A stretch of DNA of 64,000 nucleotides from Vicinamibacterales bacterium (GTDB taxonomy: Bacteria > Acidobacteriota > Vicinamibacteria > Vicinamibacterales > SCN-69-37): the NCBI GenBank assembly GCA_036675475.1, contig JAKFEY010000027.1, positions 47,012 to 111,011 of the forward strand. The letters are read 5' to 3'. Shown here one piece after another: positions 1-14,940 of this stretch; position 1 is the first letter of the stretch; each line of letters begins with the position of its first letter. The notes beneath the pieces were generated by a model. That model was given only the letters and a program-made list of their open reading frames with translations, had not been told where the DNA came from and did no database searches. Made by a program: the position numbers and the translations under genes.

Positions 1-410
1 TTCTTGTCGAACATCCAGCCAACGCTGTTGGCTTCACCGAGGTTGCCGCCGTACTTGCCGAACGTGTGGCGGATTTCGCCGACCGTGCGGTTGCGGTTGT
101 CGGTCAGCGTGTCCACGAGCACAGCGACGCCGCCGGGGCCGTAGCCCTCGTACGTGACCTCGTCGTACTGGACGCCCTCTTCTTCGCCCGTGCCGCGGCG
201 AATCGCGCGCTTGATGTTGTCGGACGGCATGTTCACCGACTTGGCGTCGGCGATGATCGTCCGCAGGCGCGGGTTCTTGTCGGGGTCGCCCCCGCCGTGC
301 CGCGCCGCCACCGTGAGTTCCTTGATGATGCGCGTGAAGACCTTGCCGCGCTTGGCGTCGGCCGCGCCCTTCTTATGCTTGATCGTGTGCCACTTGGAAT
401 GCCCGGACAT
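1..410 (-). CDS. yebC: YebC/PmpR family DNA-binding regulator (N-terminal ~136 aa; C-terminus lies beyond the window edge)
   Basis: Not in the ORF track because no stop lies in-window. Reverse translation from ATG at 408-410 reads [76 protein letters not shown]..., the hallmark YebC/TACO1 N-terminus. Confidence 0.9.
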
Positions 411-432
411 GGGGCGAATTTTATCACCTCCA

Positions 433-1242
433 TTAGATCTTCCGGGCGATCAGAATCCAGACGTCAGCCCGGAGATCCCAGGGGCGGCCGTCGTAGTCGC
501 CGAGGGCCGCGTCCATGCGGAAACCGGCCCGCTCGATGCGGGCGGCCATCTCGGGCACGGGCAGGGTGCGGAAGGTGAGCGAAAACCGGCGGACCTCGCG
601 GGTGCGGCCCCGCCGCTCGGTGAACTCCTGGTCGAAAATCGTGAGCCGCTTGCGGCGATTCTGCCGGACGGACTCCACCAGCGTGACCACGGCGCCGTTG
701 GGCCGCCGGCCCTTCAAGCTCTGGTGGTTCGAGTACTCGGACCAGGCCGGCAGATCGGGCACGAGATCGACGGCGAGCTTGCCGCCCTTCTTCAGCACGC
801 GCGCGGCCTCGGCCAGCGCGGCGTCGAGGTCATCGTCGGAGGTCAGCGACTGAATGATGCCGTATGGCGCCATGACGGCGCCGAACGCGGACGAGCGGTA
901 CGGCAGAGCGCGGATGTCGCCGCGCGCGGCGCGCACCGGGACGCGCGCGCGCCGGAACCGCGCGCGGGCGCGGTCGAGCATGGCCTCGGATAAATCAATG
1001 CCGGCGACGAGGTGGCCGCCGCGGGCGCCGGGCGCGCCGGCCGCGCGCGCGGCCTCGACGTCGCGCGTCAGCGGCAGCAGCACGCGTCCGGTGCCGGTGC
1101 CGAGCTCGAGCGATCGCCCGGGGATGCCTGCGGCAAAGCGGCGCCAGAACGCGATGTCGCGCCGCCCGACGGTGCGTTGATTTTCCCAGTCGTAGAACGC
1201 GGCGTACTCGTCCCAGCCCTTGCTTCCGGTGGATGGCTTCAC
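433..1242 (-). CDS. Class I SAM-dependent methyltransferase (last gene of the lasso operon run)
   Basis: 269-aa ORF with motif [10 protein letters not shown] and post-[10 protein letters not shown]. It starts 17 nt downstream of the kinase gene on the same strand. Confidence 0.8.
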
Positions 1243-1258
1243 GTGTGGTCCCTAGAGT

Positions 1259-2152
1259 TTAAATGCAATCGCGCAGCACGGCGTCGACCGCGGCGTCGAG
1301 AAACGCCAGCCCGTCGGGATAACAGACGCGGCGCGACGGCACGGCGGCGGCCGCGCGGTTGGCGGCGTCGAACAGCCGCGCCGACTCGGCGCGATCACCC
1401 ACGTCCAGCCGAAACACGTGCGACAGCATCTCGATGCGCATGACGGCCGGCGACAGCGGCTGCACGCTGACGGCATCGCCGGTCTCGAGCAGATACAGGC
1501 GCGCGAGAGGCACGCGTCCGGACGCCAGCGCCACCGGCGCGCGCAGTTTGCCCGTCCCGATCGCCGTCAGCGGCGCGCCCGCGGGCGCCGCCTCGCGCAT
1601 GTCGTGCCACAGGCGCACGCCGTCGGCGGTCGGCCACACGGCGGGCGCGGCCTCATGCAGGTCGACGGCGAGCGCATCGTCGGCCACGAGCGCGAAGCCG
1701 CGGCGGCAGCAGGCGGCGGCCAGCGTGCTCTTGCCGGCGCCCGATTCTCCGATGAACGCCACCGCGCCGGCAGGCGTGTCGACGGCGCACGCGTGCAGGA
1801 CGAAGCGGCCGGTGCGGCTCAGCGCCAGCGGCAGCACCTGGTGCAGCAGCAGATGATCGAGCGTGGACGCGTCGAGGGCGGGCGCGGCCTGGAACGTGAC
1901 GGCGCGTCCATCGCGGGCCACGAGAGACGCGAGATCGGGCAGCGTCACGCGAAAGCCGGTGGCGGCGCGGCTGATGGACATCCAGACCGTGTCCGCGTCA
2001 CCCGTCCATTGCTGAATCGGTTCGTCTGACGCGGCCGGCACGTCGCCGCGGCGGATCACGATGTCGGGCGGGCCGGCGGCCGCGGGCAGGTGCGCGAAAT
2101 CGATGTCGCCGCCAACCGTGAGATCGGCGAACCGGCGCGCGCCGCGCATCAC
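1259..2152 (-). CDS. HprK-related (HPr kinase C-terminal domain-like) kinase, putative RiPP tailoring kinase
   Basis: 297 aa with P-loop FIGESGAGKSTLAAACCRRGFALVADD, resembling the HprK C-domain (GxSGxGKS...G..LVADD). Its start overlaps the upstream stop as ATGA (2149-2152). Confidence 0.75.
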   Translation of the reverse strand: MMRGARRFADLTVGGDIDFAHLPAAAGPPDIVIRRGDVPAASDEPIQQWTGDADTVWMSISRAATGFRVTLPDLASLVARDGRAVTFQAAPALDASTLDHLLLHQVLPLALSRTGRFVLHACAVDTPAGAVAFIGESGAGKSTLAAACCRRGFALVADDALAVDLHEAAPAVWPTADGVRLWHDMREAAPAGAPLTAIGTGKLRAPVALASGRVPLARLYLLETGDAVSVQPLSPAVMRIEMLSHVFRLDVGDRAESARLFDAANRAAAAVPSRRVCYPDGLAFLDAAVDAVLRDCI

Positions 2153-3279
2153 GCGCGGCCGTACACGGCCAGCACTTCGGCGACGAGCACCTCGGCGGCC
2201 TGCGCATCAGGAAACAGACCGGGATGCGTCGCGAACACCGCCGTCTCAATCTCGCGGATCGTGCGGCGCCCGTCGCACAGATCGAGCACGGTGCGGCGCG
2301 CCTCGCCGTGAATGGTGAGCGACGGCACGGCGTCCGGCCGCGTGCGCGCGATCGCCTCGCGGGTCGGCAGCATGCCCTTCCAGGTCGAATGCGACATCCG
2401 ATCCGATCCGTCGGCGCGCGCGATGTCCCAGGTGACGATGGAGTCGGCAGGCAGTACGCGGACAGCCACGCGCGCCTGCTCGCCCGGCGCGAGGTCGAGC
2501 GGGCGATCGAACGGCAGAAACGCGGGGCGCCGCTCGATGCGATCGGGCGCGTCCGGCGCGTTGGTCATCCACACGCCCGGCGCGAGTTCCGCATGAAAGA
2601 AGCCGCACAGGCCGTCGGCGCGGCACGCCGCGGTCGCGGTGAGCGTAAACGACGCCGACAACGGCATGCCGTCCCACGACGCGGCGTCGAAGGCGATCGG
2701 CGAGGCCGCGGCGGACAGCAGCGTGATGTGTTCGATGCGCGTCGGATAGCCGGTGTTGATCGCGATGGTTCGCGCCGCCGCGGTGTCGACGCCGCCTGGC
2801 CGCGTGCGCCAGAACTCGACGCGCGCGCGCATGACGGGCGAGGCCATCAGCGCGATATCGAGATGCACGGGACCAGGCACGATGCGCGCGCCCGGCTTGA
2901 GCAGGCGGCGCCGCGCATCGCCCGCGTACTCGAGCAGCCCCGCGTCGAATCCCATCCGGCCTATCTGATCGCACACGAGGACGTCCGCGGGTTCGGGCAG
3001 CTCGGCGCGCGTGGAATGCGCGGCGATGTGGGTGATGCGGTCGGCCGCGCCGGCGGCGCGGGCGATGGCGCGGGCGACTTCGATGATGCCGCCCTCGTCG
3101 ACGGCAAACACGCGCGCGGCGCCGGCGTCGAGCGCCATGAGGCCGAGGATGCCCGTGCCGCAGGCAAGGTCGAGCACGATATCGCCCGGCGCGACGGCGG
3201 CGTGAATGGCGCGGCGGAACGCGTCGAGCCGCGGCTGGTCGCTCAGATATTCACGGTGTTCGTCGAGGACGAGCGACAT
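2149..3279 (-). CDS. Protein arginine N-methyltransferase (PRMT)-fold SAM methyltransferase with a C-terminal PqqD/RRE-like extension
   Basis: 376 aa. The N-terminus HREYLSDQPRLDAFRRAI...VLDLACGTGILGLMALDAGAARVFAVD...ADVLVCDQIG...LLKPGARIVPG...RVEFW is colinear with type I PRMT motifs (Rossmann, THW-like region, beta-barrel). The last ~80 aa (SLTIHGEARRTVLDLCDGRRTIREIETAVFATHPGLFPDAQAAEVLVAEVLAVY) look like a PqqD winged helix. Confidence 0.7.
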   Translation of the reverse strand: MSLVLDEHREYLSDQPRLDAFRRAIHAAVAPGDIVLDLACGTGILGLMALDAGAARVFAVDEGGIIEVARAIARAAGAADRITHIAAHSTRAELPEPADVLVCDQIGRMGFDAGLLEYAGDARRRLLKPGARIVPGPVHLDIALMASPVMRARVEFWRTRPGGVDTAAARTIAINTGYPTRIEHITLLSAAASPIAFDAASWDGMPLSASFTLTATAACRADGLCGFFHAELAPGVWMTNAPDAPDRIERRPAFLPFDRPLDLAPGEQARVAVRVLPADSIVTWDIARADGSDRMSHSTWKGMLPTREAIARTRPDAVPSLTIHGEARRTVLDLCDGRRTIREIETAVFATHPGLFPDAQAAEVLVAEVLAVYGRA

Positions 3280-3297
3280 GAACGCGGCGGCGGGCCC

Positions 3298-3471
3298 TTA
3301 CAGGCACCGCATCTTGCCGCCGGCTTCCGTGATGTTGCCCGACGATCCGCGCGTGAGCTTCGCGAGGTGGCCGTACTCCACCAGCGCGGGCTTCTCCCAG
3401 GCGCGCGCGGGCCTGGCGGTCTCGTCGCGCGGGCGGTCGGCGTCGTCCGGAGTGTGCGCCATGCCCCTCAT
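3298..3471 (-). CDS. Lasso peptide precursor (41-aa leader + 16-aa core GSSGNITEAGGKMRCL)
   Basis: Internal start of track ORF 3298..3522. It reads MRGMAHTPDDADRPRDETARPARAWEKPALVEYGHLAKLTR/GSSGNITEAGGKMRCL. The leader fits aromatic-xx-P-x-L-xxx-G-xxxxx-T-x with Thr at -2, and the core has Gly1 and Glu8. The ATG at 3469-3471 forms ATGA with the cyclase stop. An alternative ATG lies at 3460-3462. Confidence 0.8.
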   Translation of the reverse strand: MRGMAHTPDDADRPRDETARPARAWEKPALVEYGHLAKLTRGSSGNITEAGGKMRCL

Positions 3472-5270
3472 CTTGCCCCAAAGCGCGCGGCCAGCCAAGC
3501 GTCGACGCCGATGATCCGCCACAGCGCGAGCGCCGCCGCGCCGTCCTGTTCCCGGGCGCGGGCGGCAAGGGCGCCGACTTCGGCGGACACGACCCAGCCG
3601 CGCGCCGTCAGCGCCGGCACGGCGAGATGGCGCTGCACGTCCGGCGCGCGAAGCGCCTCCACCAGCAGGCGCGTGAAGTCGTTCTTCGTCACGCGCGCGG
3701 CGGTCTCGGGCGACAGCCGCGGCGCCATGGCCGCGCGCATGGCCGCGCGGTTGTGCGCCGGCGTGAGGTGCGCGTCCTGCGGCGTGGCGAACGCCAGCTC
3801 CACGAGGCGCCGGTCGTAGAACGGATGACGCAGCTCGACGCCCGACGCCACCGCCAGGCGGTCGAGTCGCTCCTTGGCAAACGCTTCTTCACCGCTGTCG
3901 AGACGCCATCGCATGCGGCGCCAGCTTTCGGCCGGCGCGCCGCGCGTGTCGGGGCGCCGGCGCAGCCGATCGCGCAGCTCGACGCGCGCGGCAAACGCCG
4001 GATCGATCCACGCGGGCAGCGGGGCGTGCCTGACGGCGCGCGCCGCGCGCCGCAGCGGCGCGGGCACGAGCGGCAGCAGGCCATCGCGCGCGAAGGATGG
4101 CCAGCTCCATGTCACTTCCTCGCCGGCGGCAGCCCCCGCGCGCTGCCATTGGCGCAGCGCGCCCAGCCGGCCGCGCCGCAGCAGGTCCGCCATGTGCGCC
4201 ATCTCGCCGCTCCACCACTGATCCCCGCCGAACCCCGTCAGCACAACACGGGCGCCCGCGGCCGCGAGCGCGGCATGCAGGCCCGTGAAGAGCGGCCGCC
4301 CCGAAGGCGAATCAGGCAGATCGGCGTCGGTGAGGATCGAGGCGAGATCGTGCGCCGGCGGATCGACAGGCGGCGTCACCGCGATCGGCTCGATCGACCA
4401 CCGGCGCGCCATCGCATCGATCCAGCGCGACTCGTCGGCCTCCGGCCAGGGAAAACGCAGCGCGCCGGCCATCGGCGCCGCCAATCCGTTCGCGCAGATC
4501 GTGCCCAGCACCGACGACGAATCGAGCCCGCCGCTCAGGTGCGTCCCGACCGTGGCACTGCCGGCGCACCGCGCGCGAACCGCCTCGTCGAACACCTCGC
4601 GAAATCGCGAGGCGTGATCGTCGAGCGATCCGCCGTGCATCTCGCGCGGCGGCTCCCAGTACCTCGAAACCGCAACGCCCTGCTCGCTCGCGACGAGCAT
4701 GTGGCCCGCCGGCACGCGGCGCACCGATAGAAACGGCGTGGCTTCCGCGTCGGCAATGTCGCCCCCCAGGGCTTCCGCGAGAAAGCCCTCGTCGGGTGAA
4801 TCGCCGGGCTCCACGAGCGCGCGCAGCTCCGACGCGCATCGCACGTGCGCGGTGCCGGCGCGGTAATAGAGCGGCCGGATGCCGAGCGCGTCGCGAATCG
4901 CCAGCAGGCGGCACGCGCGCGTGTCGAGGATCACGATCGCGAAGTCGCCGGCGAGGCGGGCCGCGAAGCCGTCGCCCCAGCGCGCGAACGCCTCGAGCGC
5001 GATCCCCGCGTCGGTCGCGTCGGCCGGCAGCCCGAGCTCGCGGCGGAGATCGGCCGCGTTGTCGAGCCGCAGATCCGCGGCGAGCAGCCCGCACGACGGA
5101 TGGCTGCCGAATGCGGGCGACGGACCCGCCGCGCCGATCACGCCGCCGGCGCCCGCGACAACCAGGCGATGACCGGCGCCCCGCTCGGGCATGCGCTCGA
5201 GCAGCGCCTTGACGGCAGCCTGCGCGGCGGCCGCATCGGCGGCGCCAAACACCGCGGCGACGGCATTCAT
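3468..5270 (-). CDS. Lasso peptide cyclase (asparagine synthetase-like, LasC type)
   Basis: Real start MNAVAAVFG at 5268-5270 inside track ORF 3468..5735; the upstream 155 aa are Arg-rich read-through over the B2 gene. It has the PP-loop SGGLDSS and lacks the N-terminal catalytic Cys2 of true AsnB. Confidence 0.85.
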   Translation of the reverse strand: MNAVAAVFGAADAAAAQAAVKALLERMPERGAGHRLVVAGAGGVIGAAGPSPAFGSHPSCGLLAADLRLDNAADLRRELGLPADATDAGIALEAFARWGDGFAARLAGDFAIVILDTRACRLLAIRDALGIRPLYYRAGTAHVRCASELRALVEPGDSPDEGFLAEALGGDIADAEATPFLSVRRVPAGHMLVASEQGVAVSRYWEPPREMHGGSLDDHASRFREVFDEAVRARCAGSATVGTHLSGGLDSSSVLGTICANGLAAPMAGALRFPWPEADESRWIDAMARRWSIEPIAVTPPVDPPAHDLASILTDADLPDSPSGRPLFTGLHAALAAAGARVVLTGFGGDQWWSGEMAHMADLLRRGRLGALRQWQRAGAAAGEEVTWSWPSFARDGLLPLVPAPLRRAARAVRHAPLPAWIDPAFAARVELRDRLRRRPDTRGAPAESWRRMRWRLDSGEEAFAKERLDRLAVASGVELRHPFYDRRLVELAFATPQDAHLTPAHNRAAMRAAMAPRLSPETAARVTKNDFTRLLVEALRAPDVQRHLAVPALTARGWVVSAEVGALAARAREQDGAAALALWRIIGVDAWLAARFGAR

Positions 5271-5677
5271 GCGGAGGTAACGAAGACCGGATGCGGCGCC
5301 GCGTCGATCGAACAGAGCGGCGCATAGGGGCGAACGGGATGCTGCCCGCTCAGCGCGAGGCTGCCATGCGCGAGCCAGGCATGGGCCGCGAACGCGCGCG
5401 GGCTTGCGCCGCCCGGCGCGACGCCGATCGTGACGCGCGCGGCCAGCCCTTCGCGCGCCAGCAGGTGCGCGCCGGCCAGCGCGCGCGTAAGACAGGTCGG
5501 CCGCGCGATCCACGCGGCGCGATTGAGCGCGCGCGCGATTTCCGCGGCGCGCGCCGGATCGAGCCGCGCGCCTGCAGGCGCCTGCAGCTGCCGCCCCGCA
5601 AGATCGCGGCACGACACCACGCGCAGCGCCAGCGCCGTCGTTACCAGCACGCGCAGCGCGCGAAAGGTCAGCATCAT
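5267..5677 (-). CDS. Lasso peptide biosynthesis B2 protein (transglutaminase-like leader peptidase)
   Basis: 136 aa with the family motifs PTCLTRALAG (Cys) and FAAHAWLAHG (His). It has 4-nt overlaps with both neighbours. Confidence 0.85.
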   Translation of the reverse strand: MMLTFRALRVLVTTALALRVVSCRDLAGRQLQAPAGARLDPARAAEIARALNRAAWIARPTCLTRALAGAHLLAREGLAARVTIGVAPGGASPRAFAAHAWLAHGSLALSGQHPVRPYAPLCSIDAAPHPVFVTSA

Positions 5678-5946
5678 GGGGCCGGCGCGACGATGAGGCC
5701 GCGCGCCGTGAGGTCGGATACGAAGGCGTCGACATCGGCTTCGATCACCTGACGATCGGCCGCGAACTCGCGCGCGAGCGTGGCGACCACGGCCTCGCGC
5801 GCCTCGCCGGCCTCGATCAACTGCCAGATGCGGGCAGCCGTTCCGGTCATGCCGAAGTACAAACTGCTCCGCAAATCGAGCACGAGCACCTCGCCATCGA
5901 GCTCGCGCGAAAGCGCATCGGGGCTCACCTGGTAGGGTCCGGCCAT
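5674..5946 (-). CDS. PqqD-family RiPP recognition element (lasso B1)
   Basis: 90 aa: LDGEVLVLDLRSSLYFGMTGTAARIWQLIEAGEAREAVVATLAREFAADRQVIEADVDAFVSDLTARGLI, a typical PqqD/RRE pattern. Confidence 0.85.
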   Translation of the reverse strand: MAGPYQVSPDALSRELDGEVLVLDLRSSLYFGMTGTAARIWQLIEAGEAREAVVATLAREFAADRQVIEADVDAFVSDLTARGLIVAPAP

Positions 5947-6110
5947 CGAGGCTATCTTAGGACGCCGGTACGACGGGACGGTAAGCTGTGTAATTACAAG
6001 GACTTACAGACGTGTGCAAAGGCATGCAGAAACGGGTGTCTCAGGCCGAAAAGTTGGGTGTAATGTACCAGGCCGGTACGTGGTATTGTACGTAAAATAA
6101 CCGACGCTAT
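5947..6110. promoter_or_regulatory. Divergent intergenic control region (lasso operon leftwards, EPS plus-strand operon rightwards)
   Basis: This is the only markedly AT-richer stretch in the first 10 kb. It contains TGgTATTGT (extended -10-like, 6081-6089) and TAAAAT (6093-6098) before the 6111 start, two copies of GCCGGTACG, and a weak palindrome ATGTACC-N5-GGTACGT (6063-6081). Confidence 0.3.
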
Positions 6111-6710
6111 ATGACACGAGCTGACATCCGCCTCGTCGCCGTCGTCGCCATGTTCACGCTGGCCGCGCCGTCCCTCGACGCGCAGGTCAGTGTTGCCGGC
6201 CGTGCCGCCGCGCGTACGATTGCCACGCGCACGACGACGTCCGCCGCGCGCGCGGCCAGCGCGCTCAGCTCACTGGGCTCAGGCACGTCCACCACCGCCT
6301 CGCGCCTCACGTCCGTGATGGGATATCTGTGGGCGGGCGAAGGCATGCCGGTATCGAACGCCACCGTGCAGCTGCGCAACATCGTCACGGGCCAGATCGA
6401 ACAGGTGTCGTCGACGCTGCAGAACGGCGCGTTTGCGTTTCAGAACGTGAGCAGCGGCACGTACGCCATCGAGTACGTCACCGAGTCGGCCGGACGCGTG
6501 CTGGCCGTCGGCCAGGCGTTCAGTGTCGCGCCGGGTGAAACGGTCGCCACGTTCGTGCGCCTCGGATCGAAGCTCGCGCTGCTCGTCCCCGACCTGGCGT
6601 CGAATGCGGCCCAGGCCGTCGTCTCCAACGCGGCCCAGGCGGTCGCGTCGGGCATTGTCAGTGTTGCAGGCACCGCTGCCCCGGAACAGCCTGCAAGCCC
6701 GTTGCGCTAA
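6111..6710 (+). CDS. Secreted protein with carboxypeptidase-regulatory-like (CarboxypepD_reg) beta-sandwich
   Basis: Signal peptide MTRADIRLVAVVAMFTLAAPSLDAQ, then GYLWAGEGMPVSNATVQLRNIVTGQ...NGAFAFQNVSSGTYAIEYV, and a tandem SNAAQAV repeat near the C-terminus. Confidence 0.55.
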   Translation: MTRADIRLVAVVAMFTLAAPSLDAQVSVAGRAAARTIATRTTTSAARAASALSSLGSGTSTTASRLTSVMGYLWAGEGMPVSNATVQLRNIVTGQIEQVSSTLQNGAFAFQNVSSGTYAIEYVTESAGRVLAVGQAFSVAPGETVATFVRLGSKLALLVPDLASNAAQAVVSNAAQAVASGIVSVAGTAAPEQPASPLR

Positions 6711-6739
6711 ACGACCGTTTCAGGAAACACGGCGACAGC

Positions 6740-9070
6740 ATGCTTACGTCTCCCCACGAGCCCGCCGGCGACCGCGCGATGCCTCCGATGCCGCCCAGCA
6801 TGCCGATGGGCAGCGGCGACGGCGAGATCCACCTGCTCGATCGCCTCAGCGTCGTTTATCGCTATCGCCGCCTGGTCATTTCGATCGTGGTGCTCATCGT
6901 CGCCGGCAGCGTCGTGCAGACGTTCACGACCGTGCCGCGCTACAAGGCCACGGCGGTTGTGGAAATCGCGGAGGAGCGCCCGCTCTCGTCATCGCTGCGC
7001 GACATCGAGCAGCAGTTCTCGATTCAGGACCCCGAGGTGTACATGACGACGCAGGAGAACGTCCTGCGGAGCCGCGATCTCGCGCGCGTGGTCGTCAAGA
7101 AACTCGATCTGGCGCACCATCCGGAATTCGCGCCGGGCGCCGACGCGCCCTCCGGCCTTGCCGCGGCGTTCGCGTCGGTACGCGGCCGGATCACCCGTCC
7201 CCTGCGTGAACTGTTTCAGAGCAAGCCCCCTGTCTCCGCGACCGTGACCCCGGCGGCGCCATCCGATCGCGCAGGCGCGTCTGAGACGCCCGAAGAGGCG
7301 GCGCTGGTGACCGCGTTTCTCAACCGCCTGGTGATCGAGCGGCGTCCGCTGAGCCGGCATGTCAACGTGCAGTTCGACGCGCGTGACCCTCAGCTTGCCG
7401 CGCGCGCCGCGAACATGCTGGCCGAGGAGTACGTCGACAAGAATCTCGAGCTGAAGCGGACGGCGCTCGACAGCCGCATCAAGCTGTACGAGAGCGAAAT
7501 CCAGAACCAGAAGCTTCTGATCGACGGATATCAGACTGCGCTCTTCGCCTACCGGGCGAAGACCGGCACCGGCGACGTCAACGAGAACGTGCTGGGCACC
7601 ACCATCGCGCAGTTCGCCAGCGAAGAAAACAGGGCGGCCACCCTGGCCGTTCAGCACAAGGCTGTGTACGACCAGCTTCGGCCGGTGCTCGAGAACCCGG
7701 ACTTCGAGGTCACCGATCCCAAAATCATGTCGCTGCCGGCCATCGTGGGCGACGGCACGGTGAGCGCCCTGCAGGGGACCCTGCAGCGGCTGCAGAGCGA
7801 GCTCCAGGCGCAGCGGGTGCAGGGCCGCATGGACAACTACCCCGAGGTGCGCCGGATCAATCAGGACATCGAGCAGAACAAGCTGCAGCTCCGCAACCGC
7901 ATCCGCCTGCTCGCGCAGACGGCGCGCACGCAGTACGAAAGCGCGAACGCCAACGCGCAGAGCTATCGCAAGCTGCTCAACGAGACGCAGGCCAAGGCGG
8001 CGCAGGCGGGCATCGACGCCGTGCAGCCGGGATTCGTCGAGACCAGCCTGCGGGCGGCCCAGACCCTCTTGACGAGCCTGACGGCGGAGTTGCAGCAGAC
8101 CAAGGTCATGTCCAACAGCACGGAAAACAACGTGCGGACGATGGACCGGGCCGAGATACCGCCGGCGCCGTACACGCCGAACGTGCCGAACAATCTGGCG
8201 ATCGGCCTGATTGCGGGCCTCGTGCTCGCCGTGGGCGTGGCGTTCGCCCTCGATTATCTCGACGACACGATCAAGACGCCCGAAGACATCACCCGCAAGC
8301 TGCGCATTCCGTTCCTGGGGCTCGTGCCGGCGGTGCGCGGCGACAAGCAGCCGGTGTTGTCCGGCCCCGTCCCGCATGATTTCGGGGAAGCGTACCGCGC
8401 GCTGCGCACGTCGCTGGTCTTCACCAGCGGCGGCGAGAAGACGCGCGTGATCGCCGTGACGAGCGCGCAGCCGCTCGAAGGCAAGACGACCACCGCGTGC
8501 AACCTCGCGATGGTGCTCGCGTTCGGCGGATCGCGCGTGCTGCTGATGGACGCCGACCTGCGGCGGCCCGGCGTGCACAAGGCGCTGAAGTTGAACAACA
8601 CGGTGGGCCTGTCGCACCTGCTCGTGGGCCAGGCGCGGGTGCGCGAGGCGATTCAGCGCACCTCCGATCCGAACTTCTGCGTGATGACGGCCGGGCGCAC
8701 GCCGCCCAATCCGTCGGAGCTGCTGTCGTCCGAGCGCATGCGCCAGCTGGTAGAGAACCTGTCCGAGGGCCCGTTCGACTGGGTCATCATCGACACGCCT
8801 CCCGTGCTGGCCGTCACCGATGCCGTGGTGATCACGCCGATGGTGTCGGGCACCGTCTTCGTGCTTGGTGCCGAAATGACGCGCCGCCGGCTGGCCGAGC
8901 GCGCGGTACAGATGGTGCTGCAGACACGCCCGCGCGTGGTGGGTGCCGTGCTGAACCGCGTCAACTTCGACCGCAACAAGTATTACTATTCGCGCTACTA
9001 CGGCTATCAGTACAAGAGCTACTACGGGCAGCAGACCCGGGCAACCGAGCAGCCCTCATCCGAGGGCTGA
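6740..9070 (+). CDS. Polysaccharide co-polymerase / BY tyrosine autokinase (Wzc/GumC-like)
   Basis: It has an N-terminal Wzz-type TM plus coiled coil and a C-terminal P-loop with Walker A (LEGKTTTACNLA), A' (LLMDADLRRP) and B (VIIDTPPVLAVTDA). The terminal Tyr cluster is YYYSRYYGYQYKSYY. Confidence 0.85.
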   Translation: MLTSPHEPAGDRAMPPMPPSMPMGSGDGEIHLLDRLSVVYRYRRLVISIVVLIVAGSVVQTFTTVPRYKATAVVEIAEERPLSSSLRDIEQQFSIQDPEVYMTTQENVLRSRDLARVVVKKLDLAHHPEFAPGADAPSGLAAAFASVRGRITRPLRELFQSKPPVSATVTPAAPSDRAGASETPEEAALVTAFLNRLVIERRPLSRHVNVQFDARDPQLAARAANMLAEEYVDKNLELKRTALDSRIKLYESEIQNQKLLIDGYQTALFAYRAKTGTGDVNENVLGTTIAQFASEENRAATLAVQHKAVYDQLRPVLENPDFEVTDPKIMSLPAIVGDGTVSALQGTLQRLQSELQAQRVQGRMDNYPEVRRINQDIEQNKLQLRNRIRLLAQTARTQYESANANAQSYRKLLNETQAKAAQAGIDAVQPGFVETSLRAAQTLLTSLTAELQQTKVMSNSTENNVRTMDRAEIPPAPYTPNVPNNLAIGLIAGLVLAVGVAFALDYLDDTIKTPEDITRKLRIPFLGLVPAVRGDKQPVLSGPVPHDFGEAYRALRTSLVFTSGGEKTRVIAVTSAQPLEGKTTTACNLAMVLAFGGSRVLLMDADLRRPGVHKALKLNNTVGLSHLLVGQARVREAIQRTSDPNFCVMTAGRTPPNPSELLSSERMRQLVENLSEGPFDWVIIDTPPVLAVTDAVVITPMVSGTVFVLGAEMTRRRLAERAVQMVLQTRPRVVGAVLNRVNFDRNKYYYSRYYGYQYKSYYGQQTRATEQPSSEG

Positions 9071-9119
9071 CCGCAGCCGCGCGGCAGCCGCGGCGGCTGT
9101 CGGTGCGGTCGCGTGGGCG

Positions 9120-10388
9120 GTGCTCGCGTTCGGGGCCGTCTATCCCTGGGCCGCGCCCCCGCTGCTCGCGCTTGCGCTCGTCGCGCTGTGGCTCGCGCGC
9201 GCCACGCCGTCGCGGCGCGACCTGCTCGACGTCGCGCCGCTCGCCGCGGTCGCGATCATCGCGTTTCAGCTGATGCCGCTTCCCGTGTCCGTGCTCGACG
9301 TGCTCGCGCCCGAACACCGCGCCTATCGCGCGGCCATGTCGCTCGGCTACGACGCGCGCGCGTGGGCGCCGCTGTCGCTCGATCCGCGGGCCACGCGCAC
9401 GGGACTGATGCTGGCCGCGGCGGCCCTCGCGCTGTTTTCGGCCACGCGGCAGCTTGCGGAACACGAACGGCGGACGGCGGCGCGATGGATTGCCTGGCTC
9501 GCGGCGATCGTGTCACTCCTCGGCCTCGGCTCGGGGATGCTGTTTCCGGGCGGGCGCATTTACGGGTTCTGGCAGCCGCTCGAGCCGAGCGCGCAGCCGT
9601 TTGGCGTCATCATCAACCGCAATCACTTCGCGGCGTGGGCGATGATCGCCGCCGCGCTCGCGGCCGGCGGCCTGGCCACCCATGCGGCGCGCCGGCGCGC
9701 GCACACGCCGGCCGCGCGCGCCCTGGTCGAGGCGCTGAGCGACACACGCGCGCTGTGGCTGCTCTTCCCGGCCGTCGTCGCCATCGCCGCGGCTGTTGCC
9801 ACGGGATCGCGCTCGGCGCTTGCCGGACTGCTTGCGGCAGGGCTCGTCGCGGCGCTGCTGGTCAGAAGGCGCGCCGGACGCGCCGCGCGGCGCGTGGCGA
9901 TTGCCGCGGCGGCCCTGTGCCTGATCGCCGCGTTCAACTGGTCGCGGCCCGACGTCCTCATGTCGCGCCTCGATCGAACGGGCGGCGAGCTCGGGCTGCG
10001 TTCCGCGATCTGGCAGGAGTCGATCGGCATCGCGCAGCGGTACCCGATCACGGGCGTGGGCGCCGGCGCCTTCCCCGCCGCCATGGCGCACTATCAGCGC
10101 GCCACGCGCGACGTGTTCTTCAATCACGCGCACAACCAGTACCTCGAGATCGCCGCCGAAGGCGGCCTGCTGCTGGGCCTGCCGCTGCTGCTGTTTGCGG
10201 GCGCGCTCGCCTGGCGCATCGCGCGCCGGCTGCGGGCGCCCGCCGGCAGCGCCTTCTGGCTCCGCGCCGGCGCCGCGGCGGCGCTCGCCGGCCTGGCCGT
10301 GCTGTGTATCTGGGAATCGCCGTTCCGCACGCCGGCCACGCTCATGCTGGCGGCCGTGGCCGCGGGGCTTGCGGCGGGGCGCGACTGA
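9120..10388 (+). CDS. O-antigen ligase/polymerase family (Wzy_C) membrane protein
   Basis: 422-aa polytopic protein with the family motif FFNHAHNQYLEIAAEGGLLLGLPLLLF. Confidence 0.8.
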   Translation: MLAFGAVYPWAAPPLLALALVALWLARATPSRRDLLDVAPLAAVAIIAFQLMPLPVSVLDVLAPEHRAYRAAMSLGYDARAWAPLSLDPRATRTGLMLAAAALALFSATRQLAEHERRTAARWIAWLAAIVSLLGLGSGMLFPGGRIYGFWQPLEPSAQPFGVIINRNHFAAWAMIAAALAAGGLATHAARRRAHTPAARALVEALSDTRALWLLFPAVVAIAAAVATGSRSALAGLLAAGLVAALLVRRRAGRAARRVAIAAAALCLIAAFNWSRPDVLMSRLDRTGGELGLRSAIWQESIGIAQRYPITGVGAGAFPAAMAHYQRATRDVFFNHAHNQYLEIAAEGGLLLGLPLLLFAGALAWRIARRLRAPAGSAFWLRAGAAAALAGLAVLCIWESPFRTPATLMLAAVAAGLAAGRD

Positions 10389-11131
10389 TGGCGCTGCGGG
10401 TGGCCTTCGATCTCGACGGGGTCATCGCCGACTTCCGCTCGGCGTTCGAGCGCGAGGCGCGCCGTCACGTCGCCGGCGTGCTCGATCCCGACCGCGCCGA
10501 CAGCGACACGTTCTCGAACGCCGAGATGCGGCGCATCTGGGCGCGCATCCAGCGCACGCCGAACTGGTGGACGACGGTGAAGCCGTACGAACCGGCCGAG
10601 ATCGCGCGCCTGTACGAGATCGCGCGGCGCAGGCGCTGGGAAGTCGTCTTCATGACGAAACGGCCGGTCACGGCCGGTGAGCCCGTGCAGTTCCAGACGC
10701 AGCACTGGCTCGAGCAGCACGGCTTTCACTATCCCGCGGTCGTCACCGTTCCAGGCTCACGCGGCGAGCTGGCCAACGCCCTGCGCCTCGACATCGTCGT
10801 CGACGATCAGCTTTATAACTGCCTCGATGTCGTGAGCGGATCGCATGCGAAGGCGCTGCTGCTGGCGCGCGATCGCAGCGACGATGTGGAGCGCCAGGCC
10901 GCGTCGCGCGGGATCGGCGTGGTGCGGACGCTGGCGGAGGCCGTTGACGCGCTAACGGGCCTGGAGACGCACCAGACCGAGCGCCAGGGGCGCCTGCAGC
11001 GATTGAGCGACTGGCTCGTGCCGAAATCCGACGCCGCGCTGCCGTCGCAGCCGGATCCGGGGCGGGTCACGCTCAGCGATCCTGACGGGACGGATCCGGA
11101 TCGGGATCCGCAGGGCGGGACGGGCGTCTGA
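10388..11131 (+). CDS. HAD-superfamily hydrolase, 5'(3')-deoxyribonucleotidase (NT5C)-like
   Basis: Real start MALRVAFDLDGVIADF (DxDGV nucleophile motif) at 10388, which overlaps the upstream stop (TGATG). The 425 aa upstream in track ORF 9113..11131 are an out-of-frame read of the Wzy_C gene. Confidence 0.65.
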   Translation: MALRVAFDLDGVIADFRSAFEREARRHVAGVLDPDRADSDTFSNAEMRRIWARIQRTPNWWTTVKPYEPAEIARLYEIARRRRWEVVFMTKRPVTAGEPVQFQTQHWLEQHGFHYPAVVTVPGSRGELANALRLDIVVDDQLYNCLDVVSGSHAKALLLARDRSDDVERQAASRGIGVVRTLAEAVDALTGLETHQTERQGRLQRLSDWLVPKSDAALPSQPDPGRVTLSDPDGTDPDRDPQGGTGV

Positions 11132-12227
11132 ACCAGCCGGGCGCGCCGCCGGCCAGCCGTCGCAGGTACAGCAGGGGCAACGGCAGGCGCGAGCGTGCGT
11201 CACTCCGCACGAACGCCGCGTCGGGCAGAAAGGTTTCGCGCAGGAGCGCCGCACGATCGCGCCAGCCGAGGGCGCGCCAGTCGAGCGCGAAGTCGTCGCC
11301 ACGGGAGCGATCCTCCCTCGTGAACATCAACAGATCCGACGGCTGCGCGGCCAGACGCGCAACGGCATCGGCGACGCCGGCCGGCAGCGTCTCGCCCGAT
11401 CGCGCCGCGGCGCCGCTCACTTCGTACGCCACCAGCGGTCCCACCCCCCAATGGGCCGCTCGCTCGAGCAGCTGCGGCACGCGCCGTTCGGCATGCGCGG
11501 CCAGACGCAGCATGTCGACGTCCCAGATCAGGCGCCGCTCGCCAGGATGATGCACCAGCCGGTGCACGGCGGCCGTGATGATCGCGTCCACGTCATCGGG
11601 CCCGCGCGCCGCGCGATGCAGGCCCGGGAGCGGCACGCTTCGCGCCGCGACATCCGCGAAGGACATGCGCGAGGCCAGCGCGGGCGCGTTCACGACGCCG
11701 GTGTGGAGATCGACGGTGCATTCGCCGTCGGCCACCGGCCGGCGGTAACTCTGCTGCCGCACGCGCACCCGGCCCGGCTTTTTCACGTCCTTGACGAAGC
11801 CGGCGCCAAGCAGCGCGCGTTCGACGATGCCGGCGTGGCGGTGCTCGACGAGCAGGTCCCAGTCGAGGCGCATGCGATCGGCCGGCGACCCGTACAGGCT
11901 GTACGCGAGCGCCGCGCCTTTGAAGAACAGTACCGGCACGTTCACGTGATCGAGCGCGCCGGCGACGGCGTGACGCTGCAGGGCTTCATACAACGTCCAG
12001 CGGCGCAACGCCCCCTGCATGGCGGCGACGTGCGCTCCAAGTCGAACCTCCGCTACATCCGGCGGCTCGACGCGCAGAAGTCCCCGCAGCGCAAACGGCA
12101 CCACCTGCTGCTCTTCGGCAGCCGTGACGAGATCGCCTGGATCGCAGGGCGCGATCTCCGCGGGGGTGATCTGATGGGGATGAAAGAGAAGGCCGGCGAG
12201 TATGCGCGCGACGGGCATGCCGCCCAC
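11073..12227 (-). CDS. Nucleotidyltransferase family protein (uncharacterised NTP_transf_5-like)
   Basis: 384 aa. VPVLFFKGAALAYSLYGSPADRMRLDWDLLVEHRH resembles the NTP_transf_5 core (K-G..L....Y......R...D.DLLV). Confidence 0.6.
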   Translation of the reverse strand: MGGMPVARILAGLLFHPHQITPAEIAPCDPGDLVTAAEEQQVVPFALRGLLRVEPPDVAEVRLGAHVAAMQGALRRWTLYEALQRHAVAGALDHVNVPVLFFKGAALAYSLYGSPADRMRLDWDLLVEHRHAGIVERALLGAGFVKDVKKPGRVRVRQQSYRRPVADGECTVDLHTGVVNAPALASRMSFADVAARSVPLPGLHRAARGPDDVDAIITAAVHRLVHHPGERRLIWDVDMLRLAAHAERRVPQLLERAAHWGVGPLVAYEVSGAAARSGETLPAGVADAVARLAAQPSDLLMFTREDRSRGDDFALDWRALGWRDRAALLRETFLPDAAFVRSDARSRLPLPLLYLRRLAGGAPGWFRRPSRPADPDPDPSRQDR

Positions 12228-12229
12228 GA

Positions 12230-13399
12230 TCAGCTCCAGATGGAGCTGATGACGGCGCGCCGGAAGGCGGGATGCCGCAGCAGCGCCAGGGCCGCGCGGC
12301 GGTGCCAGTTGAAGTCGGCCGTCTCCTTGAGGAGCGGCACGATGCCGTCGACGCGCGCGAGCTCGACGAGCGCGTCGATGCCGCGGTCGCCAAGCCGGGA
12401 CGCGAGCCTGCGAAAGGCGAGGCCCGCGCGAATGTCGGGCCCGATGCGCTCGCGCCAGCGCGCTTCATACGGGCGCAGGTCGCGCTCGGCGAGGCGGTCG
12501 GCCGCCAGGCACGCGTCGAGCGTCTCGGCGGCGTACACGCCGCTCAGCATGCCGTAGTAGATGCCGCCGCCGGTGGTGGGTTTGACGAGGCCCGCGGCAT
12601 CGCCGACCGCCAGCACGCGATCGGACACGGTCTTGGGCACCGGGCCGAGCGGCAGCATCTTCATCCGCGGCGGGGGCATCGGCGCGGCCGGCATGCCGTG
12701 CTCGCGCGCCAGCTGCGCGGTGAAGGCGTCGAACCGCGCGCGCGCGTCCGTCTCGCACAACAGGCCGAGCCTGGCGTACGGCACGTCGCCGCGGACGAAC
12801 GGCACCGCCCACGCAAACCCGGCCGGCGCGATGGTGCGGCCCATGCGCACGTCGATGTGCGGCAGCGACGCATACGGCATCTCCACCTGCGCGCTCTGCA
12901 CGTAGGCCCGCGGAATGCCGAGGCCGAGCGCGCGATTGAAGCGATAGTTGGCGCCGCAGGCCAGGACCAGCGCGCGCGCGCGAACAGGCGCGCCGCCGCG
13001 CACCGCGGCGGTGACGCCGGCGGCGTCGACCGTGATGCCCTCGACACGGGCGCCGGTGCGCAGCTCCGCGCCGGCATCCGCCGCGCGCGCGGCCAGCGCC
13101 GCGTCGAACCGCGGCCGATCGACGACCGTGGCGATCACGTGATCGCTTTCAATCAGGACGGGCTCACCGTGGCCGGCGCGAAAGCCGGCCGATCGCGTAA
13201 TCGCCAGGATGGTGTCGCGCGGAAGATCGAGCTCGCTGAACGCGTCGTGCCCGAGCACGCCGGTGCAGTGGGCAGGACGGCCGACTTCCGGATGCTCTTC
13301 GAGCACGAGCGTGTCTCGTCCGCGCGCCGCGAGACGCGCGGCAGCCGACAGACCCGCAGGGCCCGCTCCTATGATGAGAACATCACGCACGTCGCGCAC
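12230..13399 (-). CDS. Geranylgeranyl reductase family FAD-dependent oxidoreductase
   Basis: It has the dinucleotide fold VLIIGAGPAGLSAAARLA, HCTGVLG, and the C-terminal GDAAGLVKPTTGGGIYYGM motif typical of the GGR family. Confidence 0.8.
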   Translation of the reverse strand: MRDVRDVLIIGAGPAGLSAAARLAARGRDTLVLEEHPEVGRPAHCTGVLGHDAFSELDLPRDTILAITRSAGFRAGHGEPVLIESDHVIATVVDRPRFDAALAARAADAGAELRTGARVEGITVDAAGVTAAVRGGAPVRARALVLACGANYRFNRALGLGIPRAYVQSAQVEMPYASLPHIDVRMGRTIAPAGFAWAVPFVRGDVPYARLGLLCETDARARFDAFTAQLAREHGMPAAPMPPPRMKMLPLGPVPKTVSDRVLAVGDAAGLVKPTTGGGIYYGMLSGVYAAETLDACLAADRLAERDLRPYEARWRERIGPDIRAGLAFRRLASRLGDRGIDALVELARVDGIVPLLKETADFNWHRRAALALLRHPAFRRAVISSIWS

Positions 13400-13411
13400 T
13401 CTCGCCGGGCC

Positions 13412-14074
13412 TCAGGTGAGTCTGCTGTTCGTGCCGCGCCGCTCCCACGATCCGCGAAGCGTGATGACGAGCGACTGCAGCACCAGGCGCAGGTCAAGCC
13501 AGACGCTCTGCCTGCGAAGGTAGAGCTTATCGTAGCGGAATTTCTGACGGCGGGGTAGGTCGCGCCGCGCGTAGATCTGTGCGATGCCGGTGAGCCCGGG
13601 CCGCACCGCCGACCGCACCGTGAAGCCCGGGACGTCCTCCAGGGCCTGGGCGCCGGCGCCGGCGGCGTGCGTTTCGATCTCTCCTGGCCGCAGGGCGCGC
13701 GGCCCGACCACGCTCATGTCGCCGCGGAGGATGTTCCACAGCTGCGGCAGCTCGTCGAGCGCGGTCGCGCGCAGCACGCGCCCCACGCGCGTCACGCGCG
13801 GATCCCGGGCGACGGCCTGCCGCGGCCCGTCGCGCTCGGCGTCGGCCACCATCGAGCGGAACTTCCACGCCAGGAACGGCCGGCCCCGCAGGCCCGAACG
13901 CGGCTGCGCGTAAAAGACCGGGCCGCGGCTGTCGAGCCGAATGGCCGCGGCGGCCGCAAGGGCAATCGGCAGCGTCAGGATCAGGCCGGCCGACGCAAAC
14001 GCGATGTCGACACTCCGCTTGATCGGGTCGCGCGCAATGGCGGCGCCTCGCGCCAGGAGGCCGGCGTCGGTCAT
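13412..14074 (-). CDS. Polyprenyl-phosphate sugar-phosphate transferase (bacterial sugar transferase, EpsL/WcaJ C-domain type)
   Basis: Real start MTDAGLL at 14072-14074. It has one TM, then PVFYAQPRSGLRGRPFLAWKFRSM...DELPQLWNILRGDMSVVGPRA...RPGLTGIAQI. Confidence 0.85.
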   Translation of the reverse strand: MTDAGLLARGAAIARDPIKRSVDIAFASAGLILTLPIALAAAAAIRLDSRGPVFYAQPRSGLRGRPFLAWKFRSMVADAERDGPRQAVARDPRVTRVGRVLRATALDELPQLWNILRGDMSVVGPRALRPGEIETHAAGAGAQALEDVPGFTVRSAVRPGLTGIAQIYARRDLPRRQKFRYDKLYLRRQSVWLDLRLVLQSLVITLRGSWERRGTNSRLT

Positions 14075-14940
14075 TACTTGACCCGGCGCCCGCCAAGCGC
14101 GTCGTACAGCAGCAGCCACCGGCATCGCGTGAAGATGCCGGCGTACGCGGCTGCATCCTTGAGAGGATTGCGCCGGAAGTGTTTCCGGTAATACCGCCAC
14201 AGACTCTCGTGCCGGGCGCGAATCATCGCCGGTTTCACCGCGCGGGAGCTGGCGCCAATCTCGTGTCGCAGCGTGACCAACGGCAGATAGCGCACCGCGC
14301 GTCCCGCCAGCGTCGCGCGGTAGCAGAAGTCGACATCTTCGCAGTACATGAAGAAGCCCTCGTCGAGCCCGCCCAGGTCGGCGGCCAGCTGCCGGCGGTG
14401 CACGAGTGCCGCGCCCGACACCCAGTCCGCCCTCGTCACGCCATCGCGATCGGCCTCGGTTCGAAGGTACCGCTTCGAGAATGGATTGCCGGGCCAGAGG
14501 CGCGTGAGCAGCGAATAGCGGTGCCCGAGCGCGGAATGGAAACCGGGAAACCCGCGCGCGGAGGGCTCGATGCGGCCCTGCGCGTCGACGAGCTTGAGTC
14601 CGGCAATCGCGGTGCCGGGATGCGCGTCGAGCCACGCGACCACGCCGGCGAAGCGGCCGTCGACGACCTCGGTGTCGGGATTGATCCACGCGACGTACCG
14701 CCCGCGCGCGACGGCAAGCCCGGCATTGATGCCGCCGGCAAAGCCCGCATTCCGGCCGTGCTCGATGACGCGCGCGTGCGGAAATCGCTGCCGCACGAGC
14801 GCGGCGGTCCCGTCGGTCGACGCGTTGTCGACCACGATCACCTCGGCAGCCACGCCGTCGAGCGCGGGCACGAGCGACGCCACACACGCCTCGATGTGCC
14901 GCGCGGAGTGGTAGGTGACGATGATGATCGAGAGATCCAT
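14074..14940 (-). CDS. Glycosyltransferase family 2
   Basis: Real start MDLSIIIVTYHS at 14938-14940, forming ATGA with the AsnB stop. It has the VVDNASTDGT and INPDTEV motifs. Confidence 0.85.
   Translation of the reverse strand: MDLSIIIVTYHSARHIEACVASLVPALDGVAAEVIVVDNASTDGTAALVRQRFPHARVIEHGRNAGFAGGINAGLAVARGRYVAWINPDTEVVDGRFAGVVAWLDAHPGTAIAGLKLVDAQGRIEPSARGFPGFHSALGHRYSLLTRLWPGNPFSKRYLRTEADRDGVTRADWVSGAALVHRRQLAADLGGLDEGFFMYCEDVDFCYRATLAGRAVRYLPLVTLRHEIGASSRAVKPAMIRARHESLWRYYRKHFRRNPLKDAAAYAGIFTRCRWLLLYDALGGRRVK

Follow-up and report, generated by a model that had tools for sequence, protein, structure and literature searches.

Lasso peptides are valued scaffolds whose known tailoring reactions number no more than a handful. 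The locus at positions 433–5946 of the window (the whole 64,000-nucleotide stretch analyzed here, from contig JAKFEY010000027.1 of the Vicinamibacterales assembly GCA_036675475.1) raises the question of which of its seven consecutive minus-strand genes make and modify such a peptide, and by what chemistry. A first-pass annotation had described these genes as a lasso core, comprising B1, B2, the cyclase C and the precursor A, followed by a first methyltransferase, an HprK-like kinase and a second methyltransferase (here MT1, K and MT2), and had proposed that all three downstream enzymes tailor the peptide. We found the seven open reading frames (ORFs) where it had placed them, and our analysis very probably assigns six genes (B1, B2, C, A, MT1 and K; 1259–5946) to a conserved lasso module and leaves MT2 outside it. 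The lasso pathway itself is known; what is new is a widespread lasso subfamily that combines a methyltransferase derived from protein arginine methyltransferases (PRMTs), an HprK-like kinase, and Met-rich cores that terminate in Cys-Leu.

The lasso core and the enzymes that travel with it

Profile searches place each of the core genes in the family first proposed for it. B1 (5674–5946, 90 residues) is a PqqD-type recognition element for peptides synthesized by the ribosome and then modified post-translationally (RiPPs), a predicted leader-peptide chaperone (Pfam PqqD, 1.9e-17) whose best NCBIfam matches are lasso PqqD chaperone models. B2 (5267–5677, 136 residues), which overlaps both B1 and C by 4 nt, is a transglutaminase-like leader peptidase (Transglut_core3, 2.2e-15) that scores 56.6 bits against NF033537 lasso_biosyn_B2, above the cut-off of 33. 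The Asn-synthetase-like cyclase C (3468–5270, 600 residues; Asn_synthase 2e-33, GATase_7 3e-15) carries the SGGLDSS PP-loop, starts in our start-codon analysis at an ATG at 5270 that overlaps the B2 stop (ATGA), and has the lasso lactam cyclase model lass_lactam_cya as its best NCBIfam match (1e-73, 248.9 bits). The precursor A (3298–3471) has 57 residues if translated from an ATG at 3471 that overlaps the C stop, or 54 from an alternative ATG at 3462, and scores 26.9 bits against NF033521 lasso_leader_L3, above the cut-off of 19. The E-values exclude chance as the source of the family matches of the seven ORFs. By these matches B1, B2, C and A are a genuine lasso core of the split-B type, as first described, and the product predicted from the genes alone is a threaded lasso.

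The six ORFs from B1 to K are all intact and coupled. A and MT1 are separated by 18 nt and MT1 overlaps K by 4 nt, both as originally reported, while the junction between K and MT2 measures 16 nt rather than the 17 given at first. A scan of positions 1–6800 for sigma-70 promoters returned none, and a terminator scan of the same interval gave seven weak sites (shuffled mean 2.3), located within genes or not on the operon strand, none of them usable.

The link between these genes was examined by a search with an MT1 alignment, at one genome per species, which yielded 80 loci whose genes were then called by tblastn and iterated hidden Markov model (HMM) searches. The loci span at least seven phyla and come from Acidobacteriota (several orders), Nitrospira, Rokubacteria, Binataceae, Methylomirabilota, Thermoleophilia, Acidimicrobiia, Planctomycetota, Myxococcota, and several proteobacterial groups. 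Lasso genes lie beside MT1 in 72 of the 80, and the lasso-linked members belong to Acidobacteriota, Nitrospirota, Rokubacteria, Binatia, Methylomirabilota, Actinomycetota, Planctomycetota, and proteobacterial groups. Across the whole set the counts are 66 loci for C, 62 for B1, 52 for B2, 66 for K, and 42 for N, a PF14907 gene. The genes mostly run B1-B2-C-A-MT1-K(-N), with K as a rule immediately downstream of MT1, and homologous precursors adjoin MT1 or K in 65 loci, the precursor always lying beside one or the other. The eight loci with no lasso gene include some canonical-PRMT-type homologues, the others being very short contigs. On the strength of this shared neighborhood, MT1 and K are genuinely linked to the lasso core as a widespread uncharacterized tailoring pair, and positions 1259–5946 belong to a large uncharacterized lasso subfamily spanning many uncultured phyla. 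The pair has probably escaped characterization because all of its known members come from uncultured organisms. Of the three tailoring enzymes first proposed, MT1 and K are therefore co-conserved with the lasso genes; MT2, which is considered below, is not.

The precursor has the features of a lasso substrate. Its leader, with a YxxPxL motif and Thr at position −2, ends in ...WEKPALVEYGHLAKLTR, and the boundary runs ...WEKPALVEYGHLAKLT-R and then GSSGNITEAGGKMRCL (GSSGNITE...), a core encoded at 3348–3301 that begins with Gly1, has an acidic residue within positions 7–9, and also contains K12 and R14. The predicted ring is a Gly1–Glu8 macrolactam. In the five closest cores (the window, L081, L163, L164, and L165) the ring follows the pattern G-x-S-G-x-x-x-E with an invariant Ser3. 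Among the 60 loci with both an identified precursor and a full-length MT1, a Cys-Leu C-terminus was found in 41, across several phyla, and before it there is usually a tail rich in Met (such as ...MMMMCL, ...GMGMMCL, ...MFMSTACL or MMMMMMMGMMDALDD). Arg is absent from 25 of 44 Cys-Leu-type cores, and 17 of the 44 have neither Arg nor Lys. The recurrent Cys-Leu ends and Met-rich tails suggest a conserved site of C-terminal modification, or possibly thioether/thiol binding of a metal such as Cu(I).

K (1259–2152, 297 residues), the HprK-like enzyme encoded directly after MT1, matches HprK_rel_A (1.5e-8), and the best PDB match of its family profile is HPr kinase/phosphorylase (1.8e-6). A 15-member alignment shows six invariant residues (H120, G138, G140, K141, S142, and D158) and two almost invariant ones (G135 and D159). 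The spacing of these eight residues is identical to that in BsfK, where the motif H148-G163-G166-G168-K169-S170-D186-D187 is experimentally important and where the enzyme phosphorylates core Ser3 of the linear precursor with the assistance of B1 (PMC10368454). L064 and L065, alone among the complete lasso loci in having no K, have cores devoid of both Ser and Thr, as would be expected if K acts on a core hydroxyl. By its motif and its genomic linkage, K is a predicted lasso precursor kinase.

The bsf cluster of Bradymonas sediminis (PMC10368454) resembles the locus in the window in its split B1 and B2, its cyclase, its HprK-like kinase with the identical H-G-G-G-K-S-D-D motif, its Ser at core position 3, and an associated PF14907-type nucleotidyltransferase gene. 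In contrast, it has no PRMT-like methyltransferase, carries an ABC exporter within the cluster, has Ile rather than Thr at leader position −2, and encodes a precursor, BsfA, whose core ends in Asp rather than Cys-Leu. The paeninodin and pseudomycoidin systems, as two reviews describe them (PMC9266682, PMC8498205), likewise employ an HprK-like kinase (PadeK, ThcoK or PsmK) that acts on the linear precursor before folding, and a second enzyme such as PsmN can elaborate the modification. However, those kinases need a C-terminal Ser where the present family ends in Cys-Leu, and the systems are of Firmicutes origin with no methyltransferase partner.

The lasso modifications covered in the passages of these reviews that were consulted are phosphorylation, glycosyl-phosphorylation, C-terminal O-methylation by an unrelated methyltransferase, aspartimide formation driven by a protein L-isoaspartyl methyltransferase (PIMT), acetylation, hydroxylation, and citrullination (PMC9266682, PMC8498205). 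No PRMT-like lasso enzyme appears there or in the BsfK paper (PMC10368454). More widely, the full-text literature searched, whose coverage is incomplete so that silence is only absence of evidence, contains neither a lasso pathway with a PRMT-like or “L11 methyltransferase” enzyme nor a description of a Cys-Leu-ended, Met-rich lasso precursor family. The original remark that no characterized lasso pathway unites a PRMT-fold enzyme with an HprK-like kinase agrees with this search.

The fold and active site of MT1

MT1 (2149–3279, 376 residues) receives from Pfam only weak, generic PrmA/Methyltransf_25 matches. With E <= 1e-5 as threshold, a protein search yielded 846 homologues; the best 120 of these are mostly about 376–395 residues long, many with precomputed PRMT Pfam domains. 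An alignment of 23 family members was used both for an AlphaFold (AF2) model, which has a mean predicted local distance difference test (pLDDT) score of 92, and for a profile. All 50 of the 50 Foldseek matches listed against the PDB are type I PRMTs (PRMT6, CARM1, PRMT3; E about 1e-25), with TM-scores, normalized by target length, of up to 0.81, and the profile matches PRMT2, PRMT6, PRMT3, and PRMT1 over residues 8–277 (E 1.7e-40 to 1e-33). These results confirm the PRMT fold assigned to this enzyme at first. Like the eukaryotic type I PRMTs (PRMT1, PRMT2, PRMT3, PRMT6, and CARM1; TM-scores of 0.75–0.81 by target length, profile E 1e-40), MT1 has the Rossmann and beta-barrel domains and the motif I, VLDLACGTG, that binds S-adenosylmethionine (SAM).

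The active site tells a different story from the fold. In PRMTs the double-E loop supplies two invariant glutamates that bind the guanidinium group. Residues were equated with those of rat PRMT1 by eye, guided by a HMMER alignment. H45, D51, and R54 of PRMT1 are retained in MT1 as H8, D14, and R17, but E144 becomes D104, W145 becomes Q105, E153 becomes A113, M48 becomes Y11, and E46 becomes R9, while the THW loop is replaced by R247-I248-x followed by R250-R251. Neither the double-E loop nor the THW loop of a type I PRMT is thus present, and MT1 differs further from the eukaryotic enzymes in its extra C-terminal three-helix domain and in putative substrates that mostly lack Arg. In the alignment of all loci, D104 and R250 occur in every lasso-linked MT1 except those of L048, L049, L068, and L074, and position 113 is mostly Ala, with Ser, Gly, Pro, Phe, Thr or Tyr in a minority. 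The homologues without lasso neighbors (L058, L070, L072, and L073) keep M11, E104, E113, and W250, the canonical PRMT signature.

These replacements point to a pocket that has changed from acidic to basic, a change that would fit an anionic or thiolate nucleophile. MT1 descends from PRMTs but has probably switched its substrate and is probably not an arginine methyltransferase, since the double-E and THW residues are replaced and most Cys-Leu cores contain no Arg. The same evidence weakens the arginine methylation that the original assignment had implied. Further indications come from the loop that replaces THW, in which position 251 is Arg in 38 of the 41 Cys-Leu loci as opposed to 5 of the 19 others (Fisher p = 3e-7, a value uncorrected for phylogeny and only suggestive). 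R250 is kept irrespective of how the tail reads, even in L064 and L065, which have no K, and this speaks for a ubiquitous anionic partner, for instance the C-terminal carboxylate, more than for phosphoserine.

Two lasso loci are outliers in this respect. The enzyme of L068 (2096–3016) keeps E104, E113, and W250, that of L074 (7755–8867) keeps E113, and the associated cores have Arg near the C-terminus (VRQAC, KTRTG, KSRTV). These MT1s may be genuine peptide arginine methyltransferases that represent the ancestral state.

MT1 also differs from the methyltransferases already associated with lasso peptides. Neither MT1 nor MT2 matches Pfam Methyltransf_2 or PCMT at E <= 0.1, the families to which we take StspM (lassomycin-type) and the PIMT-type lasso methyltransferases to belong. 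The lassomycin-type enzymes LasF and StspM are comparable in that they use SAM to methylate a lasso precursor, in the case of MT1 perhaps likewise at the C-terminus, but StspM was modeled on mitomycin 7-O-methyltransferase, a member of a different family, and has no accompanying kinase (PMC9266682). MT1, unlike StspM, is PRMT-derived and has a beta-barrel domain.

The C-terminal three-helix domain of MT1 (approximately residues 312–376, window 2149–2343), considered as a possible fused PqqD-like recognition element, has no Pfam match. Its comparison with the B1 family by hhalign gave a probability of 0.3%, Foldseek superposed it on TbiB1 (5v1u) with a root-mean-square deviation of 1.5 Å over 45 columns (probability 0.69; E = 3.3, non-significant), and a PDB profile search returned only PqqD (5sxy), weakly (E 0.44). 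A sequence search of residues 194–376 against the PDB found nothing. The domain matches the C-terminal part of the Mycobacterium tuberculosis methyltransferase Rv2067c (PDB 8hkr) with a Foldseek probability of 0.97 and 31% identity over 45 columns, which is better than its match to the lasso recognition-element proteins. A BLAST link between B1 and MT1 that emerged in ORF clustering was discarded as spurious, having been produced by stop-to-stop ORFs and frameshifted fragments.

A proposed pathway and its alternatives

The reading that we favor, with moderate confidence, is that of a six-gene split-B module in which K acts on a ring Ser and MT1 on a non-arginine site, with MT2 as a bystander. 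B1, judged by its family, would bind the precursor of 54–57 residues through its leader. K would then phosphorylate a ring Ser of the linear precursor, for which Ser3 is the likeliest candidate given the analogy to BsfK, and MT1 would methylate a non-arginine site, most likely within the Cys-Leu end (the Leu alpha-carboxylate or the Cys thiol), a target suggested by the rewired active site and by its covariation with the tail. After the K and MT1 steps, B2 would cleave behind Thr(−2)-Arg(−1) and C would close the Gly1–Glu8 macrolactam to give a 16-residue lasso peptide. Its calculated monoisotopic mass would be 1561.734 Da without tailoring, 1575.750 Da with one added CH2, 1641.700 Da with HPO3, and 1655.716 Da with both. 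The specific modification sites, Ser3 and the C-terminal Leu carboxylate or Cys thiol, are proposed tentatively, and we would not be surprised to see them revised. It is quite possible, if a little short of probable, that a PRMT fold has here been repurposed for a non-arginine nucleophile (Cys-Leu or phosphoserine) alongside a ring-Ser kinase, giving rise to phosphorylated, methylated lassos rich in Met and Cys.

If this is correct, the PRMT fold would gain an enzyme chemistry new to it and lasso peptides a new type of modification, and in Nitrospira, Methylomirabilota, Rokubacteria, and Acidobacteriota the products might bind a metal such as Cu(I). The rewired site of MT1 would be a natural substrate switch within a well-studied fold, and the Cys-Leu and Met-rich tails lead to concrete predictions about the modification site and a possible metal-related function. 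The status of MT2 as a bystander has a practical side, as it keeps an erroneous cluster boundary out of expression constructs and out of databases of biosynthetic gene clusters.

Several observations weigh against the favored pathway. All 80 MT1 loci come from metagenome-assembled genomes (MAGs). The score of the cyclase falls short of the 525-bit cut-off of the NCBIfam lasso cyclase model, and, while the PqqD, Transglut_core3, and Asn_synthase profiles named in the first-pass annotation all matched, the fourth, Hpr_kinase_C, recognized K at 27.9 bits (2e-6), below the Pfam gathering cut-off of 33.3. The position of the ring Ser or Thr is not fixed in the wider family. The more distant MT1-linked precursors have no Cys-Leu end, so the C-terminal motif is not a universal recognition element, and the covariation of R251 with Cys-Leu may reflect shared ancestry. 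There is no exporter in or beside the lasso cluster of the window, and MT2 lies close behind K here and overlaps it by 4 nt in L163. The clusters of the close relatives L163 and L165 lack B2, and a working pathway can therefore not be taken for granted. Loci in which B1 is followed directly by C, with no B2 in the cluster or in the flanking sequence available, are L163 (7760–9825), L165 (2345–4422), L004, L017, L027, L043, L046, and L067.

The tight spacing of MT2 (433–1242, minus strand, 269 residues; Methyltransf_25 8e-18) favors the view that MT1, K, and MT2 all tailor the peptide to give a phosphorylated, doubly methylated lasso, an outcome that we nevertheless regard as improbable. This class I SAM methyltransferase shares its strand with K, overlaps the ABC genes in L164, has a RiPP (daptide) methyltransferase as its best NCBIfam match (1.4e-17, below the model cut-off) and occurs in 12 of the 80 loci of the lasso survey. 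However, every one of those 12 also has yebC-ruv, the place of the lasso cassette relative to MT2 varies (L033, L038, L041, and L052 have it between MT2 and yebC, the window has it upstream of MT2), a two-gene ABC exporter stands between K and MT2 in L164, and no core residue is particular to the loci that contain MT2. A reciprocal MT2 search of metagenome contigs returned 80 loci, mostly at 50–59% identity, and none of the 80, including about 19 with at least 3.5 kb of upstream sequence, has a homologue of B1, B2, C, K or MT1; the single weak match to the MT1 query (L097) falls inside the MT2 gene itself. In 57 of these 80 loci yebC lies directly downstream of MT2, accompanied by ruvC, ruvA, ruvB, and fabH where the contig allows. 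The window holds the 5′ part of yebC (TACO1 family; 3–410, minus strand), whose product runs off the window edge after the YebC N-terminus and is a near-exact match to the YebC of L081, a syntenic Vicinamibacterales MAG contig with the order B1-B2-C-A-MT1-K-MT2-yebC-ruvC-ruvA-ruvB-fabH. Since MT2 tracks yebC-ruv with the cassette on either side, its proximity to K argues for shared position rather than shared function, and from its neighborhoods we judge MT2 to be a resident of an MT2-yebC-ruvCAB-fabH housekeeping block, probably co-transcribed with the module and not a lasso tailoring enzyme. As a tailoring candidate it was rejected on the reciprocal neighborhood test, although the tight junctions with K leave a small probability that it has been recruited to the lasso system.

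The remaining alternatives concern MT1 and K themselves. MT1 could be a true protein arginine (or lysine) N-methyltransferase acting on Arg14 or Lys12, in keeping with its fold, its strong PRMT homology, the presence of both residues in the core of the window, and the canonical residues and Arg-bearing cores of L068 and L074. We nevertheless find this quite unlikely, as the clade of the window has D104, A113, and R-I-x-R-R instead of the double-E and THW residues, and Arg is missing from over half of the Cys-Leu cores; the closest relative's core, GASGTAGEAGGMMVACL, has neither Arg nor Lys, and methylation of Arg14 or Lys12 was rejected as the principal explanation because neither residue is conserved even there. 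A different possibility is that MT1 acts on the product of K by methylating the phosphate of phosphoserine, although phosphate O-methylation is not known to us from any RiPP. The near-constant company of K, which adjoins MT1 in 66 of the 80 loci, would then be explained; a cationic active site (R9, R247, R250, and R251 where PRMTs have E, T, W, and K/Q) suits an anionic substrate, and a second enzyme that elaborates the phosphate has a precedent in PsmN acting on pseudomycoidin, as described in the reviews (PMC9266682, PMC8498205). Even so we consider it unlikely, given that L064 and L065 keep MT1 with R250 in the absence of K and of any core Ser or Thr, and that position 251 covaries with the C-terminal dipeptide and not with K. 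Finally, K, MT1 or both might serve in immunity or regulation rather than tailoring, or the cluster might be decayed or silent, as the missing exporter, the relatives without B2, and the derivation of all members from MAGs with no known product could be taken to suggest. That view appears very improbable to us when set against six intact, coupled ORFs, catalytic motifs that are conserved across phyla, a precursor gene that always accompanies MT1 or K, and core features (Ser/Thr and Cys-Leu) that vary together with the enzymes' presence and residues.

Neighboring genes

Outside the six-gene module of the favored reading, the window contains a candidate for a further lasso gene. N (11073–12227, minus strand, 384 residues) encodes a PF14907 nucleotidyltransferase-like protein (NTP_transf_5, 3.9e-24) and lies 5.1 kb upstream of the lasso genes on the same strand, behind four exopolysaccharide (EPS) genes on the opposite strand. 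In about 40 loci a PF14907 gene comes directly after K, and the distal position of N is syntenic in L081, L163, L164, L004, L027, L043, and L067. The nucleotidyltransferase-like genes BsfN and PsmN occur in kinase-containing lasso clusters, as described in two publications (PMC10368454, PMC9266682), and N may by comparison be a detached member of the lasso system. Directly upstream of N is a gene for a flavin adenine dinucleotide (FAD)-dependent oxidoreductase (12230–13399, minus strand, 389 residues; Pfam Lycopene_cycl/FAD_binding_3), homologues of which (44–47% identity) stand directly upstream of B1 in L017 and L046; its membership of the lasso system is uncertain.

The lasso cluster may have been split by the EPS genes. 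At 6111–10388 (plus strand) these encode a secreted CarboxypepD_reg-like protein, a chain-length regulator of the Wzz/tyrosine-kinase-like kind, and a Wzy-like polymerase; the fourth gene is a 239-residue ORF. The EPS block is divergent from B1 and is a conserved upstream neighbor of the lasso cassette in approximately 11–17 acidobacterial loci.

Other loci of the survey carry additional genes in or beside the cassette. In L164, whose MT1 is 65% identical to that of the window, an ABC_tran and ABC2_membrane exporter pair lies between K and MT2 (12034–13517). The Nitrospira-type loci L009, L010, L012, L014–L016, L018, and L037 share a conserved gene of about 370 residues directly upstream of B1 (for example L010, 3822–4937), which is absent from the window and by eye resembles a GT-B glycosyltransferase.

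A second Asn-synthetase homologue is encoded in the window at 14940–16829 (minus strand, 629 residues; 5.8e-64 against the cyclase HMM), among glycosyltransferase and EPS genes and with no PqqD, B2 or precursor gene nearby. It is probably an EPS-associated amidotransferase and not a second lasso cyclase.

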